From a virus, in the IMG/VR virus record IMGVR_UViG_3300009702_000016, positions 1-64,000 of that record: DNA of 64,000 nucleotides. One strand, written 5' to 3'. Position numbers and translations under genes: made by a program. Position 1 is the first letter of the stretch. Each line of letters opens with the position of its first letter. Under the pieces are notes generated by a model. The model made no database searches. It was given only the letters and a program-made list of their open reading frames with translations, and was not told the DNA's origin. This document shows positions 1-44,426 of the stretch, piece by piece.

Positions 1-555
1 AAGCATGCGAGTAGGGTCATCAGAAAACGTCTTGTCAGGGTCGGACGGGGTATCCATAATCCCCGCCTGTAGGTCCTTCATTCCCTTCCCTGTAAGGTCG
101 ATGATCTCTGCTTTATCGGGTCCGTCAGCTAGTTGGGAAAGACGCCACATCAATGTGTTAAAATTGAACTCTCGCCTTCCCACATCTTTTTTAAGAGTGG
201 CGTGCTCCACCTTATTAGGCTTATACCCCCCTCCTGCGTAGCTCTCGCTTCGGGAGTTGGCGATCTCAATCTGCTCCCCTTGCATGTCGATCCCATCAAG
301 CTCCCAGGGACCAGAAATGGATAGAATCGCAACCCCATATTGGTTCGTCGCTAGGTTGGTCTTTGCGGGTATGACCTTGCTAAGCTCCTGTGCGAACCAC
401 TTAGAGTCTCTTCCTTCTCCTATACTCAAGGCATCGATCACCATGTCGATATCCTTGATGGGCTGCTTGATCACCCAGTTACGGACTGCTCCGCCGACCA
501 CATAGGTGTGCTCAGCGACTCCTAGCCTTTGCGCTTGGCGCGCAAGCCATCGCAT
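1..555 (-). CDS. cca: Class II tRNA nucleotidyltransferase (CCA-adding enzyme / poly(A) polymerase family), N-terminal part, truncated at window edge
   Basis: Translated by hand (absent from the track because there is no stop in the window): MRWLARQAQRLGVAEHTYVVGGAVRNWVIKQPIKDIDMVID...RSESY...DVGRREFNFNTL...IIDLTGKGMKDLQAG...FSDDPTRML. Matches the GGxVR, DxD, RRD(E)FxxN and (E/D)DPxR motifs. May be made as a frameshift fusion (see findings). Confidence 0.9.
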   Translation of the reverse strand, partial: MRWLARQAQRLGVAEHTYVVGGAVRNWVIKQPIKDIDMVIDALSIGEGRDSKWFAQELSKVIPAKTNLATNQYGVAILSISGPWELDGIDMQGEQIEIANSRSESYAGGGYKPNKVEHATLKKDVGRREFNFNTLMWRLSQLADGPDKAEIIDLTGKGMKDLQAGIMDTPSDPDKTFSDDPTRML

Positions 556-597
556 TAACGCTACTTGGCGTTCGTGGCTTGCGCTTGCTCTTTTTTT
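540..597 (-). promoter_or_regulatory. Putative -1 programmed ribosomal frameshift signal (slippery heptamer plus downstream hairpin)
   Basis: Minus strand: CT[A AAA AAA] (597-591), spacer GAGCAA, then GCGCAAGCCA (584-575) pairing perfectly with TGGCTTGCGC (549-540). The -1 frame is the nucleotidyltransferase frame. Confidence 0.7.
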
Positions 598-2573
598 AGG
601 TTTTCGCCCTTCTCTCGCCTCTCCCCATTTCCTTGGGCGGGTCGGGTTCGTATGAGCTTCTGCTGCAGAGCCTTGAACTCTTGCTTCTTCTCCTTGAGCT
701 TCTTACGAACAACGATAATGTCTTTCCTTGCCCGTGGACTCTTTGCCAGGAGTGTGGGCCTATCACCAAGGTATTGCAGCACGCCAAGGACTCTCGCAGA
801 TACCACGACGGTCCTATACATACGAGCTATCGTCTTACCCACCGAGCTACTCGTGAACTCCGCAAAGTCGAACGTCTCCATGGTGTTCTTCATCTGAACG
901 GCGTCTCTGTAGGGCTGAGACTTGGCTGTGCTCAGGTCACTTCCAACAATACCACCTGAATAGAAGTCCTCGATGTTGTCCTTGAGTACTTCCTTCAGAT
1001 CAAAGTCGTCTGACTTGTAGTACTTGCTCGCCTTGTTTACCAGATAGGACATCATTGTTTCGACGTCGTCTTGGACGTCGGTCTCTATTTCGTCCATCTG
1101 CCTCTCGATGGACTTGACCACATCAACCCCTGGAACCTTGTCCTGGACCTTATCAGTCATCTCATACCGGGGATTGTGGGTTTCTGGTTCCTCTCCCGTT
1201 TCTTTCTCCTTTTCCCTCTTTCCGTGAGGCTTGAAGTTACTCTCCTCTTCTGCCTTGAGCTTTTCTTCGAGGGGCACTGACTCTTCCTTCTTCTCCTCCT
1301 TGACCTCCTCCTTGTTCTTCTTCCTTGTAAGCTCCAAGGGGGCAGCTTCTCCTAGGAGAGTATCAATGTGGGAGACGTGAGAACGTACCAGTTTTGGAAA
1401 CTTTTGTATCTTCTCTAGGGCCTCTTCTTTCTTATCATCTGAGAGGGTGGTCCATAGCGTTGATATGTAGTTAACCATATCGAGGGCTCGTGCCACAATT
1501 AGATAGCTTCTGTATGCCTTATACAGCGTCTTTCCCTCATGGCTACGCATCAGATCTCGTGCGGCCAAGAGTGTTCCATCCTTCTTTACCCTTGGAGGCA
1601 TGATCATGTATTTGTAGTTCTCGTACACACTCTTGTCAGTACTGATGGTTTTGGTTTCTTCGGAGGGCATGCTAGGGCTGTAGATACCTTTAACATGCCT
1701 TTTGATAAGCTCGTACAGCTCTTTTTCGTCAGAACCGTAAATCTCTTTCGCCTTGGCTAGCATGTGCTTACGCGCAGACTTAACTAGGGGCTCGATTTCA
1801 TCCTCAGTTGCTTGCAGCTGCCTAACAACAGACTTGACGCCCTCCTCCTCATGTCTACTAGGGTCTGTACTCTCCCTGTTGTCCTTGACTATTTTCTTGC
1901 GGACCAAGCTCTGCATTTTCTCTATGACTTTCTGATCAGGAGTTTTTCCTCTCAGATCCGTCCTGAACTTTCTGACCTCTTTCAGTATGTCGAGAGTCAT
2001 TACTACAGTCTGCGTAAACTCCTGGAATGTATTGGAGTCCTGTTTCGCTCGCATAATGAACTTAGGATTCTGAATCTTGGATAGCAAGGAAGCTAAGTTT
2101 ACTACTTTCTGGTAGAACTCGGTCATATTGGCGGAGTTTCCACTAAAGGCGTCGAAAAGTCTTAACTTCTTTAGCGCCTTCTGGTCATTCATCGCCTTAT
2201 TTAAGTTTGATTCCGAGATTCTTCCGCTTTTCTCGAATATGCTAAGAAGTCGGTCTCCTCCAGGATCCTGCGTTGAAACTACCTCGCTGATAGCCTTTTG
2301 GTCGTGCTTCCCAAAATCCATTGCGCGTGCGGTGTAACCAAGAGAGTCAATCAAATACTGGTAAATCTCCCCTCTCAGGTTTTTAGCAATCCCGAGAGAC
2401 TGCCGCGCAGACTCACTAACCGACTCAGGGTGGATCTCCCCCTCGTCTGCTGCTGTTAAGCAGATGCGGGCGACTCTGAGAACGTCTTGCTCTCGTAAAA
2501 TCCACTGCAGGCGGTCGTTCTGTAGAATTACGTTGGCGGACTTCTCCAACCTAGCTTTCAGCAGTCTGTTCAT
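561..2573 (-). CDS. Hypothetical 670-aa charged, helical/coiled-coil protein (possibly virion-associated)
   Basis: Long ORF. ATG at 2573 is preceded by AGAGGA, which is more likely than the track start at 2657. K/E-rich, no recognisable catalytic motif. Confidence 0.75.
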   Translation of the reverse strand: MNRLLKARLEKSANVILQNDRLQWILREQDVLRVARICLTAADEGEIHPESVSESARQSLGIAKNLRGEIYQYLIDSLGYTARAMDFGKHDQKAISEVVSTQDPGGDRLLSIFEKSGRISESNLNKAMNDQKALKKLRLFDAFSGNSANMTEFYQKVVNLASLLSKIQNPKFIMRAKQDSNTFQEFTQTVVMTLDILKEVRKFRTDLRGKTPDQKVIEKMQSLVRKKIVKDNRESTDPSRHEEEGVKSVVRQLQATEDEIEPLVKSARKHMLAKAKEIYGSDEKELYELIKRHVKGIYSPSMPSEETKTISTDKSVYENYKYMIMPPRVKKDGTLLAARDLMRSHEGKTLYKAYRSYLIVARALDMVNYISTLWTTLSDDKKEEALEKIQKFPKLVRSHVSHIDTLLGEAAPLELTRKKNKEEVKEEKKEESVPLEEKLKAEEESNFKPHGKREKEKETGEEPETHNPRYEMTDKVQDKVPGVDVVKSIERQMDEIETDVQDDVETMMSYLVNKASKYYKSDDFDLKEVLKDNIEDFYSGGIVGSDLSTAKSQPYRDAVQMKNTMETFDFAEFTSSSVGKTIARMYRTVVVSARVLGVLQYLGDRPTLLAKSPRARKDIIVVRKKLKEKKQEFKALQQKLIRTRPAQGNGERREKGENLKKEQAQATNAK

Positions 2574-2756
2574 CTGGGTCCTCTTTGGGCCGACCTGTAA
2601 AATAGTCTTCGTGGGTATATAACACCCAAGCACGACGCAGATAACTGCCGAATACACGAAGGTTTATCACCACTGGGCCGCCCCATTAAAAGGACGACAA
2701 GGTGTATACACCCTAACCCATGCCAGACAGCTAGTTTGGTAGAAAAGAGAAAAAGT

Positions 2757-12771: not shown

Positions 12772-12857
12772 GGAAAGTTGGCCGAGTGGTCGAAGGCACC
12801 TGATTTGAAATCAGGCGTGCCCTAAAGGCACCGGGGGTTCGAATCCCTCACTTTCCG
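12772..12857 (+). tRNA. trnS: tRNA-Ser (anticodon UGA), long variable arm, CCA not encoded
   Basis: Acceptor stem GGAAAGT/ACTTTCC; D-arm GCCGAGTGGTCGAAGGC; anticodon stem CCTGA/TCAGG with loop TT-TGA-AA; variable arm GTGCC/GGCAC; T-arm GGGGG-TTCGAAT-CCCTC; discriminator G followed by CCG. Confidence 0.95.
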
Positions 12858-12869
12858 CCGAGATGCACT

Positions 12870-33339: not shown

Positions 33340-33869
33340 CGACTTAGTTTCCAGTACATTTCAAGGTCAGACTCATGCTCCCTCAAATAACTAGACATCT
33401 TTTCTAGTCTCTTGGGTGAGGTGTGGCAGAGTGCTCTTTTCATAGCAGAAAGAAGAAGAGTGGTCATCTCGTATGGATCGTTAAATCCTGCTTCTAGGAG
33501 ACGGTCACTTACATACTCCTCAGTAGAAAGTAAAGAGTTGGCCGCCTTTCCGTGCAAGCGCAACTTGCCAAAAGAAGCACTAACTTCTTGCCCTCCTCCC
33601 CCGCCTAGCTTCTTAGCCAAAAGATTCCCAACAAGTGATCCCAGTTCATGACCTAGGCGAGCCCAGACATCATCAGGAATCATCTTTATGGCCTTCATGA
33701 GCATCTCTGCGGCTCTACCTGCCGTCTTCATGTTAGGCACAAGCAGAGAGGCAGTGCGCTCTTTAGCCGTAGGAATTATTTCTTCCTCAAGATCCACCTG
33801 TAGAAGGTCCTGTATCTTAGCAGATAGAACGATAAGTTTAACTGCTGCCTTTTCTTCCTTACTAGTCAT
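33336..33869 (-). CDS. Hypothetical protein
   Basis: Coupled ORF; contains RTAS, KTAG and VSAS motifs. Confidence 0.7.
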   Translation of the reverse strand: MTSKEEKAAVKLIVLSAKIQDLLQVDLEEEIIPTAKERTASLLVPNMKTAGRAAEMLMKAIKMIPDDVWARLGHELGSLVGNLLAKKLGGGGGQEVSASFGKLRLHGKAANSLLSTEEYVSDRLLEAGFNDPYEMTTLLLSAMKRALCHTSPKRLEKMSSYLREHESDLEMYWKLSR

Positions 33870-35287
33870 ATTCTGTCCACCAGATCCTGCGCTTTTTGAA
33901 ATGTCTTAGCTTCGGGGTCCACGAGCCCTTCGGACTGCACAGACTTCGAATACGTTGCGATGTCACTGAAAGTACCAGGACTCCCAGGACCAAAGGCGTC
34001 TACATCCTCTGGCTCTTCTTTTTCTTCTTGCTCTGAAAAGTCCAGAAGCTTGGCGATCCTATTAGACGCCTCTAGTGCACCACGGCTTTCAGACTCCTTT
34101 CGAACATAAGAGAGTTTCTTCTTAGAGGTCGAGGGAAACTTCTGACTGGTCACCCTGTAGTAAATGTCGAATATACCTCTACCGAGGTTCTTTGTTTCGA
34201 TTACGGACAGAAGTCTCTCTGAATTTTGGGTAGCGAACGTGATCTCGTCGTTCTCTAGTCCCTCAAGCATGCCCTCCCTTCTTGTGTCCCGTATCCTTAC
34301 TTTCAGATGGTTATTCTTGTCTGACTTCACCTTGACGGGGATTGTAACATCTCCAATCTGGAGATGAGGAGAAACCGAGGCTGTCTTTCGGTGTCTGTGC
34401 AACTCTATCTTAACTGGAGGCTCTTCCGCGTTGAGAGTCACATGACCCACTGTCCAAATGACAGGAGTAATTGGAAGACCCTGTACTGGTGTCTTGACGT
34501 ACTCTAAAGTCACATGCGGGTTAAAGTTCTTGTGTATGAACTCCGTACTCGCAAGACCTGGGAGATGGTACTCAAGAAGGTCCAGGAGAGTGTCATGGAA
34601 GTCCATTAGACCCTGGCTTTCTGCGAGAGCCACCCACGGGTAGGTTCCGTCCTTTTGCTGATTAGGAAAGGTGAAAGACCTTTCTAGGCGTACGTCGAAG
34701 CTTCCGACTCTGCCTGCTGCTTTCTCGATCAGTCCTTCAACTTCCTTTCCTTCCTCTTTCGTAATCGAGGGGAAGTGGGCGACGGTGATATGCGGTTCGT
34801 ACTCTAGAGAGTCGGACAAGGGAAGAAAGCTTTGAATGTTCGTCGGGACTTCTACTCCAACGATTGCGCTAGGAGCCGAGGCGGCATACCGATCAATCCT
34901 CATCTCCTTAGTCTTCGATGGAACGATCATCATAAAGCTAAACTCTGCGTTCTTGTATCTGCTGAAGGATCCTCCGGTTTGGATCTCCGTGACCCCATCT
35001 ATGACCCCAGTAACCTCTTCTCCAACAACCTTGAAGGTGACACTGGACCCTACTTTAGCCCTCATGTAACGATACACATGCTCATTTCTGGCTTGTGCCG
35101 CTTCTTTCTCCTCCTTGAAGACAAAGGTAACTCGCAGTTTGTTCCTCTGGTACGCGGTCGAAACGAGCATTCCGATAAAGCTTTGCCCTCCAAAGCTCAT
35201 GTGCACACTTTGACCACGATACGACCCTAGTATTCTAGAAGCCGACTCCGCGTCATTAGCTGTATCAGCGGTGCGAAAGAGAAACAT
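33866..35287 (-). CDS. Multidomain protein with a central 2H phosphoesterase domain (LigT/2'-5' RNA ligase/Acb1-like fold)
   Basis: Two HxT motifs about 90 aa apart: YEPHITVAHF and FNPHVTLEY. Confidence 0.82.
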   Translation of the reverse strand: MFLFRTADTANDAESASRILGSYRGQSVHMSFGGQSFIGMLVSTAYQRNKLRVTFVFKEEKEAAQARNEHVYRYMRAKVGSSVTFKVVGEEVTGVIDGVTEIQTGGSFSRYKNAEFSFMMIVPSKTKEMRIDRYAASAPSAIVGVEVPTNIQSFLPLSDSLEYEPHITVAHFPSITKEEGKEVEGLIEKAAGRVGSFDVRLERSFTFPNQQKDGTYPWVALAESQGLMDFHDTLLDLLEYHLPGLASTEFIHKNFNPHVTLEYVKTPVQGLPITPVIWTVGHVTLNAEEPPVKIELHRHRKTASVSPHLQIGDVTIPVKVKSDKNNHLKVRIRDTRREGMLEGLENDEITFATQNSERLLSVIETKNLGRGIFDIYYRVTSQKFPSTSKKKLSYVRKESESRGALEASNRIAKLLDFSEQEEKEEPEDVDAFGPGSPGTFSDIATYSKSVQSEGLVDPEAKTFQKAQDLVDRI

Positions 35288-36456: not shown

Positions 36457-38085
36457 TCAAGGTTCAATATTTAGCATCCATTTGGCTTGTCCACAGTCCC
36501 AAACCTTGTGGCATCCCTTTTTGTACCCAGAGTTTCTCCTGAACCTCATTCTGTGATATGAGTTACCCTTTCCATCAGTCCACGCGAAACTCAAACTGGT
36601 GTTCTCTAGGGTCCACCCCAGGCTTGACAGATAGGTCCCGTCGCCATAACGAAGATCTACAAACGTCTGAACCTTTTTAGGCTTCTTGTCCCTTATCGCA
36701 TGCGCAAGTAACTTGCTGTATCCTCCTACGACTGAGAGGTGGGGCATAGAGCAGAACCGGCTGACATTCAATATCCCGTCTTTTATGGACTTGAACTTCA
36801 CCTGTAGAGAAGATACTGCCTCGTCCTCGTAGAAAAGAGAATACACAGTGCCTTGGCCCTTTCCCATTAGATGGTACTTTTCGAACATAACTGGGCTGTC
36901 CTGTGCTACTTTCGTTTTTCGCGCAAACACTCGGGTGTTTTTCCCCAGGAAGTTCAACAGGATGGATCGACACACTTCTGGTTTGTTGTTCAACTCATCT
37001 TCCCTAAAGAAGAAGGAGCGGTATCCTTGGGCAAGGTAAGCTGCCCGTTTCTTCTCATGGTACCTTTTGTCCTTTATTACGGCGTCAGAGTGCCAAAATA
37101 GTCCATCACATTCGACTACTAGCTTCTTGTCGTGGACAACGATATCCGGGATGTACGACGTACCTGCAAACTTACGATTTCTTGTGACCTCCAGGCCCTC
37201 TTCTTCGAGCCACCGAGCTACTCGGTTCTCCAAGGTCCAGGATGCAGGACTGTAATCCTCTAGGAGATTTATGGCCTCCTCTTCTGTCCTTCCCTTAAGA
37301 GCTACCAAAACTGTGGAGTAGGACGAACCGATTTTCTCCGCATACTCTCTCTGCGTCATCCCCTCTATCAAAGTCATCGTTCCATTTCGGACTCGTTTCT
37401 CAACTACCTCCGACTGGCTAGGAAAGAAAACCTTAATCGGATCCTCCTCCAGACTGGAAAACATCCAAGAGGAAGTGTGAGTAAAGGTTCGTCCGTTTCT
37501 GGTGTCCAGCACCTCCAGCATGATGTCCGACGACTTATCGCTCTTGTGCACACTGAGAAGAGTGAGATGAGGAGCGACAGCCTCCAGTCGTATCCCAAAC
37601 GCCTCCTGGCTGCTCGCTGGAGGCAGCCCTAGCCTTTGGGAGAGCCGTCCTCGGCTTACTCCCTGCTCCTTGGCTATCCTCGACAGGGAGACGCCCCGTG
37701 CCCACTGACGGATGAGATCCCTGTCCTCCTCAGACCTGCCCTCAAGTAGCTCCTCTAGCGTGCTTGCCTTGGGCTGCTTGACACTAGAGATCAAGTCCCC
37801 TGACAGCATAACGTGGTTCTCGCCCTTCTCTGTGTTCAGGAAATGCAGGTAGACTTGCTTGTTTCCTCCCTTCGTATGCCTGACTTCCTGGCGAGTGATA
37901 CGAAGATGAGGAGCTAGAAGGTTTAACTTGAACTGGAAGATCCCTGGGTCCCCTTTTGCTGGGATACCAAGTTCCTTCCTTACTCTCCGTGTTGGGATTC
38001 CCAACTCCCTACCAAGATTTGACAGGGTTTCTCCTTTTGCCCATGAGTATAGAAGAGACTTCTTTTTCTCTAAGGCTAACTTCAT
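36457..38085 (-). CDS. Hef-like free-standing (homing) endonuclease: N-terminal HTH repeats, DUF559/Vsr-like PD-(D/E)xK nuclease, C-terminal GNAT-like domain
   Basis: YIPDIVVHDKKLVVECDGLFWHS...GYRSFFFREDEL; FARK...YHLMG...SRFCS...VVGGYSKLL...TFVDLRYGDG...VWDCGQAKW. Confidence 0.78.
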   Translation of the reverse strand: MKLALEKKKSLLYSWAKGETLSNLGRELGIPTRRVRKELGIPAKGDPGIFQFKLNLLAPHLRITRQEVRHTKGGNKQVYLHFLNTEKGENHVMLSGDLISSVKQPKASTLEELLEGRSEEDRDLIRQWARGVSLSRIAKEQGVSRGRLSQRLGLPPASSQEAFGIRLEAVAPHLTLLSVHKSDKSSDIMLEVLDTRNGRTFTHTSSWMFSSLEEDPIKVFFPSQSEVVEKRVRNGTMTLIEGMTQREYAEKIGSSYSTVLVALKGRTEEEAINLLEDYSPASWTLENRVARWLEEEGLEVTRNRKFAGTSYIPDIVVHDKKLVVECDGLFWHSDAVIKDKRYHEKKRAAYLAQGYRSFFFREDELNNKPEVCRSILLNFLGKNTRVFARKTKVAQDSPVMFEKYHLMGKGQGTVYSLFYEDEAVSSLQVKFKSIKDGILNVSRFCSMPHLSVVGGYSKLLAHAIRDKKPKKVQTFVDLRYGDGTYLSSLGWTLENTSLSFAWTDGKGNSYHRMRFRRNSGYKKGCHKVWDCGQAKWMLNIEP

Positions 38086-41676: not shown

Positions 41677-42963
41677 TCACAATGACTTGTGACGTAAATA
41701 GTCTAGAATCAAAAGCCTTTTAGCAACTTTACTCAATCTTTTTCTTACAGACGATAGTCTGGTCCCACGAGGATGCATCGGGGGAAGACCACCCCTTCCT
41801 GGAGCGGGCTTCTGTTTTTCACCACTTTGCGTGGATAAAGGTATCTCACTCTTCGTGTTTACGTCTTTTGGTATGGCCGTATTCTTACTTGGTTTACTTT
41901 CATTCCTAGACATGGGGTGCATTGGAGGAAGATTGTCTTCCTCATGCTTCCTTTTTATGGCATCTAGTTGCTTTTTGAGGGTATCAATGTCCTTGGTAGC
42001 TCTTTCTGACTGGTCTTTGATTGTATAGGGCATCATCTCCTGTGCCTTTTTAATGGCCTGGAGATAAGCTACCTTGAACTCTACGATGTCCCTGTCTTTA
42101 CGGAACAGACCGAACCGCTGGGTGTACACCTTCTTTACTCGTTCAAGCTCTTCAGGAGACAATCCCTGCTGGTTCTTTTCTATTGATTCTTTCAGATTGT
42201 ACAGGTAGTGCTCTTCCTTCTTCAGATGGTTATTTGAGTCCTGTACCTCCTTCTCTCTCTTTTTGGTCTCTACCCCGAGCGACTTTTCTACATTCTCTGT
42301 TCCTGCAGAGGAAAGTTCTGAGAACAGATTGGCCACCTTGTCTAATACAGGAGGTAGTTTCTTTACTAGAGATGGAATTGCACCCTGATCTATCTCAACA
42401 TTGGGGAACTCCTTACGGAGATCCGATATCTTCTCTCTAGCTTCTTTCTTCGCCTCTGCACTGTTTCCAGGAGTCTTTAGAAGCTTAACCAACGTATTGA
42501 TTTCTTTCTCGATCTTTCGGTTCCCATCGACCCAAGAGGCCTCCTTCGCCCTTATCCCCTTCTCGATGGGGTCCAAGATCTGTTTGACGCGATCAGTGTA
42601 CTTACTGTACTCACCAAATAGAAGATTGATCTTCTCTCCTACCCTCTGCTCTAATGCAGGAATCTTCAGTTCAGAAGAAACCTGCTTAACAGACTTCTCG
42701 ATCAAGTACTTTGATCCAACAGCCAATGTAGCTCTGTGGGAAATATCTTTTAGCCCATCTGCTACGACTCGCAAAGATTTCGCAGTCTCAGTGTTCTTCT
42801 GTATTTTCTTCTGTTCACTCTCAGGTAAGAGTGTCCTATCAGAATAGGGTCGGGTGGACCTCGCGGCAACTCGCATGATCCTTAGGTAGTAAGGGTATGA
42901 AGTTCTAGCTGTGTCTCGGGCCATAGGACAAATATAAGCCCCACTTCCATAATCTGGTAACAT
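41677..42963 (-). CDS. Coiled-coil hypothetical protein
   Basis: K/E-rich; LPPMHP occurs twice; exact start uncertain. Confidence 0.7.
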   Translation of the reverse strand: MLPDYGSGAYICPMARDTARTSYPYYLRIMRVAARSTRPYSDRTLLPESEQKKIQKNTETAKSLRVVADGLKDISHRATLAVGSKYLIEKSVKQVSSELKIPALEQRVGEKINLLFGEYSKYTDRVKQILDPIEKGIRAKEASWVDGNRKIEKEINTLVKLLKTPGNSAEAKKEAREKISDLRKEFPNVEIDQGAIPSLVKKLPPVLDKVANLFSELSSAGTENVEKSLGVETKKREKEVQDSNNHLKKEEHYLYNLKESIEKNQQGLSPEELERVKKVYTQRFGLFRKDRDIVEFKVAYLQAIKKAQEMMPYTIKDQSERATKDIDTLKKQLDAIKRKHEEDNLPPMHPMSRNESKPSKNTAIPKDVNTKSEIPLSTQSGEKQKPAPGRGGLPPMHPRGTRLSSVRKRLSKVAKRLLILDYLRHKSL

Positions 42964-43643: not shown

Positions 43644-44378
43644 CTACCTGAACGATTCTACCCAGCGGTCGTGCGCTGTATGGTCAGCGGGGTCTAGGAC
43701 GTTTGAGGTCTCGATGAAGTTGGTGCGACGACACACCTCGTACACCAGTTGGCCTTCCACGACATTTCCTTTGCCACGTCCGTATTCCTGGTGTCTGCAC
43801 GCGATCTTGCCATTGGGGCTTGTAGCACCGCAGCCAGGAACGGAGCACTCCGTATACCCGACTAGGGCTCCCATGCTGAATCCAGTCCTCTTACGAGTCA
43901 GGATATCGTTCGCAAGCTCGGGGTCCTTGGTTCTATCCCATCCTGCCAGCACTACAATCTTGTAGAGCCCGTTCGCCATTTTCTGCAGGCTCGCATCGAA
44001 GTGGACGCCCTTGGCCTTTCTTGGATCCCTATTGTCATGATCCTTGTGTGTGGGCTTCCCGATGAAAGTTGTATAGACCAGCCTTCCCATCTCTGCATTG
44101 AAGCTGGTTACGTCGTCGAGAGGGAACTCGTCTAAGTTTCTGTTTGGGATCCCAACAGTGACAATTGGGATCTCATTGATTACGTAGTCTCGGATATCTG
44201 CCGAGATTTGATAGGCCTCAGATGCCTGGGTAAGCCAGTCTACGTCTAGAGACTTTGTCTTGTTGAAGATGTTCTCTGACGCGATGCGTAGTGACCCGGT
44301 GCGAGGATCTCTCTCCTTTGTACAGGAGATTCCTTCGAACACCCGGGTGTCAAACGAAACGTCACCAGTCTTAATCAT
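43644..44378 (-). CDS. Prohead maturation protease (HK97/herpes-type serine protease-like) with C-terminal Cys cluster
   Basis: PNRNLDEF, FIGKPTHKDH, GFSMGALV (candidate catalytic Ser), FIETSNV.DPAD; located between portal and scaffold. Confidence 0.75.
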   Translation of the reverse strand: MIKTGDVSFDTRVFEGISCTKERDPRTGSLRIASENIFNKTKSLDVDWLTQASEAYQISADIRDYVINEIPIVTVGIPNRNLDEFPLDDVTSFNAEMGRLVYTTFIGKPTHKDHDNRDPRKAKGVHFDASLQKMANGLYKIVVLAGWDRTKDPELANDILTRKRTGFSMGALVGYTECSVPGCGATSPNGKIACRHQEYGRGKGNVVEGQLVYEVCRRTNFIETSNVLDPADHTAHDRWVESFR

Positions 44379-44426
44379 AGTATCTCTCACGTTAGAATAG
44401 GAGCAGACACCCATATAAGACTAATA

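Follow-up and report, generated by a model that had tools for sequence, protein, structure and literature searches.

A predicted −1 frameshift joins a CCA-type tRNA nucleotidyltransferase to a carrier protein in a jumbo phage

Introduction

The slippery heptamer X_XXY_YYZ of the A_AAA_AAR class, with a stem-loop a short spacer 3′ of it and a Shine-Dalgarno (SD)-like element upstream, is the cassette by which ribosomes are made to shift to the −1 frame in Escherichia coli dnaX and in insertion sequences (IS) of the IS1 and IS3 types, in the latter case yielding a longer fusion protein (PMC4066793, PMC5009743). A_AAA_AAA and A_AAA_AAG make up 72% of the IS1/IS3 heptamers, A_AAA_AAA followed by a stem-loop has been proven to direct −1 shifts in bacteria (PMC4066793), and a bare seven-A cassette gives 10% of shifted product in E. 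coli (PMC3711429). Here we describe a cassette with the same parts, and likewise predicted to give a longer fusion, in the first 64,000 nucleotides (positions 1 to 64,000, referred to as the window) of the virus record IMGVR_UViG_3300009702_000016. This one lies between a phage protein of no known family, termed the carrier, and an RNA-processing enzyme, a tRNA nucleotidyltransferase of the CCA type. It also differs in that its last slippery Lys doubles as the first residue of a candidate protease motif and in that the SD spacing is short or the element weak.

Fixed ratios of short and long products are generated in the same way by phage structural genes, as in lambda G/GT, T7/T3 gp10A/10B and the capsid extensions of Lactobacillus A2 and Listeria A118/PSA, and such frameshifts likewise allow a domain to be expressed whose insertion was out of frame (PMC5009743). 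The domains known to be added in this way are chaperone or Ig-like display domains, carried by known structural proteins, whereas here a complete two-domain enzyme would be added to a carrier that is not recognised as structural. In retroviral and totiviral Gag-Pol, too, a −1 shift fuses an enzyme to a minority of the molecules of an abundant protein. Gag-Pol, however, belongs to eukaryotic RNA viruses, carries a polymerase and is proven to be packaged, while the present system is that of a double-stranded DNA jumbo phage, concerns a tRNA-end enzyme, and has packaging and proteolytic release as proposals.

The enzyme itself shares its fold, DxD motif, basic/acidic loop and templating motif with class II CCA-adding enzymes (Thermotoga maritima 3H38/5HC9, Schizosaccharomyces pombe cca1 9NS2), and a proposed role in tRNA-end repair with the CCA enzymes and Swiss-army-knife HAD phosphatases of jumbo phages (PMC7824862). 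It differs from the known CCA enzymes in having RRE for RRD, a C-terminal HAD domain in place of an HD domain, and no start codon of its own. Phage polyvalent proteins also gather conflict-related enzymes in large polypeptides that are thought to be packaged, processed and injected; their fusions are in frame whereas the one described here is conditional, and neither CCA enzymes nor frameshifts are mentioned for them in PMC5512222. Each ingredient of the present system is therefore known, namely −1 shifts in phages, Gag-Pol-type loading in eukaryotic viruses, phage CCA enzymes and polyvalent proteins, and literature searches found none that describes a phage CCA enzyme fused by frameshifting.

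Results

The window is the first part of a single 164-kb contig, which is itself part of a 265-kb contig of the same phage (L005). No terminal repeat that would indicate circularisation was found at the ends of the 164-kb contig, which cuts the enzyme gene at its end, and the full enzyme gene was taken from L005 for this reason. All features of the locus lie on the minus strand. The carrier open reading frame (ORF) of 670 aa (561..2573) ends in a stop codon at 563-561, and shortly before it the slippery heptamer A AAA AAA (591..597) stands in the phase for a −1 shift, with the carrier frame reading Leu-Lys-Lys across the A run. A 6-nt spacer (585..590) separates the heptamer from a putative stimulatory hairpin (540..584), in which a 10-bp base stem (584-575 / 549-540) and a 5-bp inner stem (572-568 / 561-557) enclose both the carrier stop and an ATG at 555. 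Upstream, a purine run resembling an SD sequence (607..614) ends 9 nt before the heptamer, its predicted pairing of −5.6 kcal/mol being weak. The −1 frame is open from 702 to 1 and is the frame of a PF01743 nucleotidyltransferase. An earlier note on this DNA, made from its letters, had listed the 670-aa ORF, heptamer, spacer, stems and purine run, and every one of them is present. Two hallmarks of the dnaX/IS3 type are found, a slippery heptamer in X_XXY_YYZ phase that joins two long frames, and a stable structure 5-9 nt 3′ of it (here 6 nt) that goes beyond protein-coding constraint.

The hairpin folds with −26.0 kcal/mol (z −4.6), a stability that none of 200 shuffled sequences equals, and none of 1500 random positions reaches −25 kcal/mol. 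Seven-A runs occur eight times in the 164-kb genome and this is the only one with a strong hairpin behind it (−2 to −17 kcal/mol at the others). The locus also ranks best among the four places in the genome where the end of an ORF, a heptamer and an open −1 frame come together.

That the run contains seven and not eight A residues, which would make a simple in-frame fusion, is borne out by the sequence data. A Logan contig of depth 18 is identical to the window over 3000 bases with no indel; it probably comes from the source sample and hence is not independent. The A7 run is, in addition, identical in three other assemblies of related phages. A second sequencing run contains a relative of ~90-95% identity, the contigs of which end at 471 and resume at 749, leaving the junction uncovered.

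The start of the enzyme provides separate evidence for recoding. No ATG, GTG or TTG precedes ATG 555 in the −1 frame of the window, and ATG 555 lies inside the stem and lacks an SD (anti-SD duplex −1.4 kcal/mol), just as the earlier note had described. The twelve −1-frame codons before it (556..591) encode the first half of conserved helix 1 of the enzyme and are reachable only through the shift. In the AlphaFold model this Met sits in the middle of a helix spanning residues 2-23, for which the predicted local distance difference test score (pLDDT) is 91-98. Among 248 homologues the residues upstream of the Met are conserved as Leu at −1 (100%), Ala at −2 (85%), Ile or Val at −3 (79%), Ser or Gln at −4 (88%) and His at −7 (68%), and the −1 frame of the window agrees with the family at −1 to −5 and at −7. 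The Met itself is nearly invariant (234/248). In 111 of 114 distinct loci the enzyme frame has an ATG, GTG or TTG six or more codons before the Met, and the three loci without one, in this phage and in the related phages L003 and L170, are exactly the three that have the cassette. Homologues that begin at the Met without a cassette, which would have made the ATG an ordinary start, were looked for and not found. All of the other 111 loci start further upstream, and upstream starts are present in those annotated as starting at the Met for which the DNA was checked (L199, L200, L011, L016, L050 and L090). Comparison of the window with L003 over the twelve codons shows five synonymous and two replacement changes, both replacements being at variable positions, even though these codons overlap the carrier gene in the window, whereas in L003 most of them are intergenic. 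By these comparisons Met555 is not the start of the enzyme family and the codons before it are under selection.

The cassette-bearing relatives are two phages from other samples (L003/L004 and L170), which makes three with the window. All three share the gene order carrier, enzyme and, downstream, DHFR and a metallophosphoesterase-like gene. The L003 carrier is 31% identical to that of the window, L170 holds only the last 219 carrier residues, and the three enzyme genes differ at 60-68% of four-fold degenerate sites, which is near saturation. Over this divergence each phage has kept an A7 run in the same phase, with its first A 42 nt before the Met, a spacer of 6 nt, a hairpin of −25 to −26 kcal/mol and an SD-like element in the same register, the element being strong in L003 and L170. 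The 5′ arm of the hairpin begins at the same place, its 3′ partner lies one codon later in L003 and L170, and in these two phages the carrier stop directly follows the A run. A stop 18 codons upstream of the Met interrupts the −1 frame of L170. Lys-Lys pairs in the two full-length carriers are spelled AAA AAA only at the shift site (one of 9 and one of 11 pairs), AAG being the preferred codon. The equivalent region of the other 111 loci folds with −20.5 kcal/mol at best and −10.9 kcal/mol on average, and synonymous resampling attains the observed energy in 0.1-0.3% of trials (p 0.001-0.003), which shows that the hairpin is not a by-product of the encoded protein. The three enzymes form one clade (Shimodaira-Hasegawa-like approximate likelihood ratio test 100, quick tree), and the cassette is therefore one origin seen three times; no further cassette-bearing relative was found by a DNA-pattern search of viral and genome contigs.

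It is very probable from these features that the carrier is recoded into the enzyme. A ribosomal −1 shift at A AAA AAA is the best reading, with a probability of roughly 0.8, because the hairpin acts on ribosomes and because slippage of RNA polymerase is reported for longer runs. The programmed −1 frameshift proposed in the earlier note is thus strongly supported on comparative grounds, by the cassette, its conservation and the hairpin statistics. Two of the findings that the note named as refuting it were looked for and not obtained, since the A run is not eight long and diverged relatives retain the signal together with the residues before Met555. Most ribosomes would terminate at the stop of the 670-aa carrier, while a minority, to judge from such signals, would be held up by the hairpin that lies 6 nt beyond A AAA AAA, possibly with the aid of the upstream SD-like element. 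Both tRNA-Lys would then re-pair one base back and translation would go on in the −1 frame, giving a carrier/nucleotidyltransferase/HAD fusion of 661 + 564 = 1225 aa. Since the shift would be the main route to an intact first helix, enzyme output would be a fixed fraction of carrier output.

Several points weigh against this proposal. The strong SD-like element of L170 is at 7 nt, below the 9-14 nt reported for such stimulators (PMC5009743), and the element of the window, at 9 nt, is weak. Heptamer and stem are both kept in diverged relatives, but the stem has been remodelled between the phages and does not covary column by column. The cassette loci number only three, all of that single origin, and the support for the shift comes from DNA sequence.

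One alternative is that an extra A is inserted when RNA polymerase slips on the seven-A run, which would bring carrier and enzyme into frame in some of the transcripts. The site is a pure homopolymer that is kept in all three phages, and orthologous dnaX genes use either route (PMC3711429). Transcriptional realignment is, however, reported for A runs of more than seven (PMC3711429), while there are seven in all three loci. Moreover, the hairpin lies 6 nt 3′ and is not yet made while the polymerase is on the run, and its conservation therefore points to ribosomes. Polymerase slippage is very unlikely.

A second alternative, to which we give a similarly small chance, dispenses with a fusion altogether. 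Translation would re-initiate at Met555 by translational coupling, or begin at a near-cognate codon, and the hairpin would merely damp expression. In its favour, the carrier stop of the window ends 5 nt before ATG 555, the Met is the start chosen by gene callers as well as being so highly conserved, and L003 and L170 have an ATA twelve codons earlier behind the strong SD-like element. However, the gap from stop to ATG is 32 nt in L003 and L170, so the geometry needed for coupling differs between the phages, the window has AGA in place of the ATA, and a start at the Met would remove half of helix 1. Re-initiation also leaves unexplained the selection on the twelve upstream codons, the A7 run and the upstream starts of the 111 other loci.

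A homopolymer site and the many relatives with in-frame fusions might suggest an error of assembly, or an in-frame fusion gene that was recently inactivated by the loss of one base. This reading has a negligible probability and is refuted by the related phages, where A7 and the frame relation are the same in three samples at near-saturated synonymous divergence and both frames are intact on each side.

The enzyme has the layout of a class II nucleotidyltransferase head, neck and body followed by a C-terminal HAD_SAK_1 phosphatase. The head and neck are encoded in the window (1..591, with the DxD at 453-445) up to the contig end, and the rest, with the phosphatase, continues in L005 to 13677, such that the full enzyme measures 552 aa from Met555 and 564 aa from the shift. 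Its nucleotidyltransferase part matches PF01743 and phrog_2244 and shows the head-domain fold with GG-x-VR and the catalytic DxD. The enzyme model (pLDDT 93) has CCA-adding enzymes as its best match, the top Foldseek match being 3H38 (E 5e-13). An R-x-E motif with a flexible loop and an [ED]DxxR templating motif are the marks of the class II CCA-adding type, and the basic/acidic motif R115-x-E117 and the templating motif D192-D-P-T-R are invariant or nearly so in the family alignment. The conservative change of the usual RRD to RRE is invariant in the phage family of the enzyme. The HAD domain matches PF10307 (E 4e-18) and has conserved DxDxT, T/S-G-R, Lys and DD motifs, and the catalytic motifs of both domains are intact. 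By its sequence motifs the protein is a class II tRNA nucleotidyltransferase of the CCA type joined to a Swiss-army-knife HAD phosphatase. From what is known of the two families, it is likely that the HAD domain would remove 3′ phosphates and the nucleotidyltransferase rebuild C-C-A on clipped or immature tRNAs. In one viral contig (L121) the N-terminal motif of the nucleotidyltransferase occurs twice, at 2138 and 3081, less than 1 kb apart.

Some 700 nt behind the enzyme gene begins a cluster of 26 tRNA genes (L005:14375-18684), of which 19 encode CCA and 7 do not have it in full, and which includes both Lys tRNAs (UUU, CUU). A sigma-70-like promoter, as a consensus match only, precedes it at L005:14071-14099. 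An IS605/TnpB-type gene and an HNH gene lie within the cluster (L005:16121-17903), and near it is a gene for a 384-aa protein (L005:18750-19904) that is a paralogue (27% identity, E 4e-31) of a 428-aa protein encoded between protease and scaffold-like genes of the window (41677-42963), the N- and C-terminal peptides of the two being near-identical. The window has a lone tRNA-Ser(UGA) gene at 12772-12859, which ends in CC without the last A. Since 7 of the 26 nearby tRNA genes do not encode full CCA, finishing the phage's own tRNAs is a plain job for the enzyme. The HAD domain points further, to the clearing of phosphates from damaged RNA ends, as has been proposed for jumbo phages (PMC7824862), and a counter-defence purpose is plausible. 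A 473-aa head-block protein (window 33866-35287) combines a 2H phosphoesterase domain with a K-T-A-S motif behind it, and is a possible partner that would open cyclic phosphates before HAD acts.

The carrier is all-helical, and 661 of its 670 residues would enter the fusion. It is the long form of a syntenic family of ~380-aa phage proteins that occupies the same genome position in related phages, and it has a conserved basic, helical leader. Pfam, PHROGs, phage tblastn, ESM Atlas and Foldseek searches gave nothing usable on its family or fold, the model being of low confidence (pLDDT 67, predicted template modelling score 0.35), and an exhaustive profile search found only two full-length carriers. 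Compared with the 380-aa family, the carrier (561-2573) looks internally duplicated (residues ~245-410 and 485-645), with weak alignment support. Six more distant syntenic loci (L167, L169, L171-L173 and L195) have a short carrier and no enzyme gene behind it, and for this reason the enzyme gene was probably inserted once behind a conserved carrier, out of frame, in one lineage. Other members of the enzyme family have an in-frame leader or are part of long in-frame fusions, and we propose that the shift replaced the in-frame leader used by relatives.

The earlier note had pointed to an R-A-S-A-S motif right after the shift as resembling putative sites of the head protease; the motif has to be corrected to K-R-A-S (codons 583..594), an instance of [RK]-x-A-S in which K is the last slippery Lys. 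In the minus-strand head-module proteins (window 14206-53357) [RK]-x-A-S is enriched ~2.4-fold (26 observed versus 10.8 ± 3.4, and 7 versus 1.4 ± 1.2 within the first 60 residues), including in the N-terminal parts of the capsid protein, portal and protease, while no excess was found in tail or replication genes, which makes it a candidate code for the head protease. In the enzyme family [RK]-x-A just before the helix occurs in 111 of 200 homologues, compared with 52 when shuffled, with the Ala most often at −11. In each of the three phages the shift builds K-x-A-S at this commonest position, with the last slippery Lys as its K, and L003 and L170 have an additional [RK]-E-A-S just before the shift. 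The presence of K-x-A-S at the family position together with its enrichment in head proteins suggests that the head protease is meant to release the enzyme. The enrichment of the motif and its creation by the shift in all three phages support the idea of a protease site indirectly. We rate cleavage by the head protease at K-x-A|S, with carriage of the enzyme in the head, a little short of an even chance.

A number of observations stand against packaging. The carrier gene is outside the head block and the carrier lacks any family or structural match, the carrier of the window has no [RK]xA[SADG] of its own, and its leader scores weakly against the family leader profile. Leader profiles did not convincingly single out head proteins, and the only ties between the carrier and the virion are the conserved leader described above and a shared promoter-like element. 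The PaBG capsid protein loses ~20% on maturation (PMC7412058), which is similar in extent to what cleavage after K-T-A at residue 78 of 372 would remove from the capsid protein of this phage, but the PaBG protein has no [RK]xAS at the aligned site. In the 1225-aa product two enzyme domains would stand in one polypeptide, as in polyvalent proteins, only if the shift occurs; no MuF, portal or polyvalent-associated domain was found in the fusion and its gene is not beside head genes.

The alternative that rivals the packaging step alone, and not the shift, is that a real −1 shift only meters a low level of enzyme in the infected cell, where the unpackaged enzyme would complete the CCA-less tRNAs of the phage and repair those of the host, and that K-x-A-S is a leftover of in-frame ancestors. 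This is a serious possibility that we place somewhat below even odds. It would fit the proximity of the tRNA cluster and its incomplete CCA ends, the tRNA-Ser gene of the window without its last A, and a carrier unlinked to any virion family. However, the 13.7-kb and 8.2-kb loci of the relatives have no tRNA genes, the tRNA cluster has its own promoter match, of consensus type only, and K-x-A-S is kept in all three phages, with the second motif added in L003 and L170. More tentative than either is the complete Gag-Pol-like scheme, in which the shift would attach a tRNA 3′-end repair enzyme to a carrier of the inner head in a constant low proportion, the protease would free it, and the injected enzyme would repair tRNA ends that host defences had damaged, ahead of phage gene expression; taken as a whole this scheme is doubtful.

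The genome setting is that of a jumbo myovirus, with a capsid protein that shares 33-35% identity with its counterparts in PaBG, Motura and other jumbo myoviruses related to them. Terminase, portal, head protease and capsid genes are on the minus strand at 38-50 kb, the head protease gene at 43644-44414, with an HNH/homing-endonuclease-like gene (36457-38085) immediately behind the capsid gene. The carrier/enzyme locus, at the contig end and on the minus strand like the head genes, is 11.6 kb from the head block and adjoins plus-strand replication genes; among homologue loci, 18 of 113 are within ~4 kb of a portal or terminase gene. A promoter-like element GTTAT[CA]TA (2616..2623, minus strand) precedes the carrier ATG by 50 nt and is also found upstream of most carrier homologues. 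It occurs five times in the 164-kb genome (window 2623, 12751, 59582 and 61442; 140601 of the full contig, G000), a number not above chance, with all five copies intergenic and on the coding strand, and once more at L005:20442. It is a candidate phage promoter element, and its assignment to a late class is weak because none of the five genome copies precedes portal or capsid genes.

Discussion

While known phage frameshifts give tail chaperones or small display domains, the shift described here appears to be the main way in which a whole RNA-processing enzyme is made. The locus is a clear case of an inserted enzyme that would have been acquired in the wrong frame and retained through recoding while the phages diverged widely, its cassette is short and fully defined, and in such loci gene callers mis-start the enzyme in the middle of its first helix. 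If it is true that the fusion is packaged, the system would be a parallel to Gag-Pol in a bacterial virus, and pre-loaded tRNA repair would be directly testable as a counter to defences that target tRNA.

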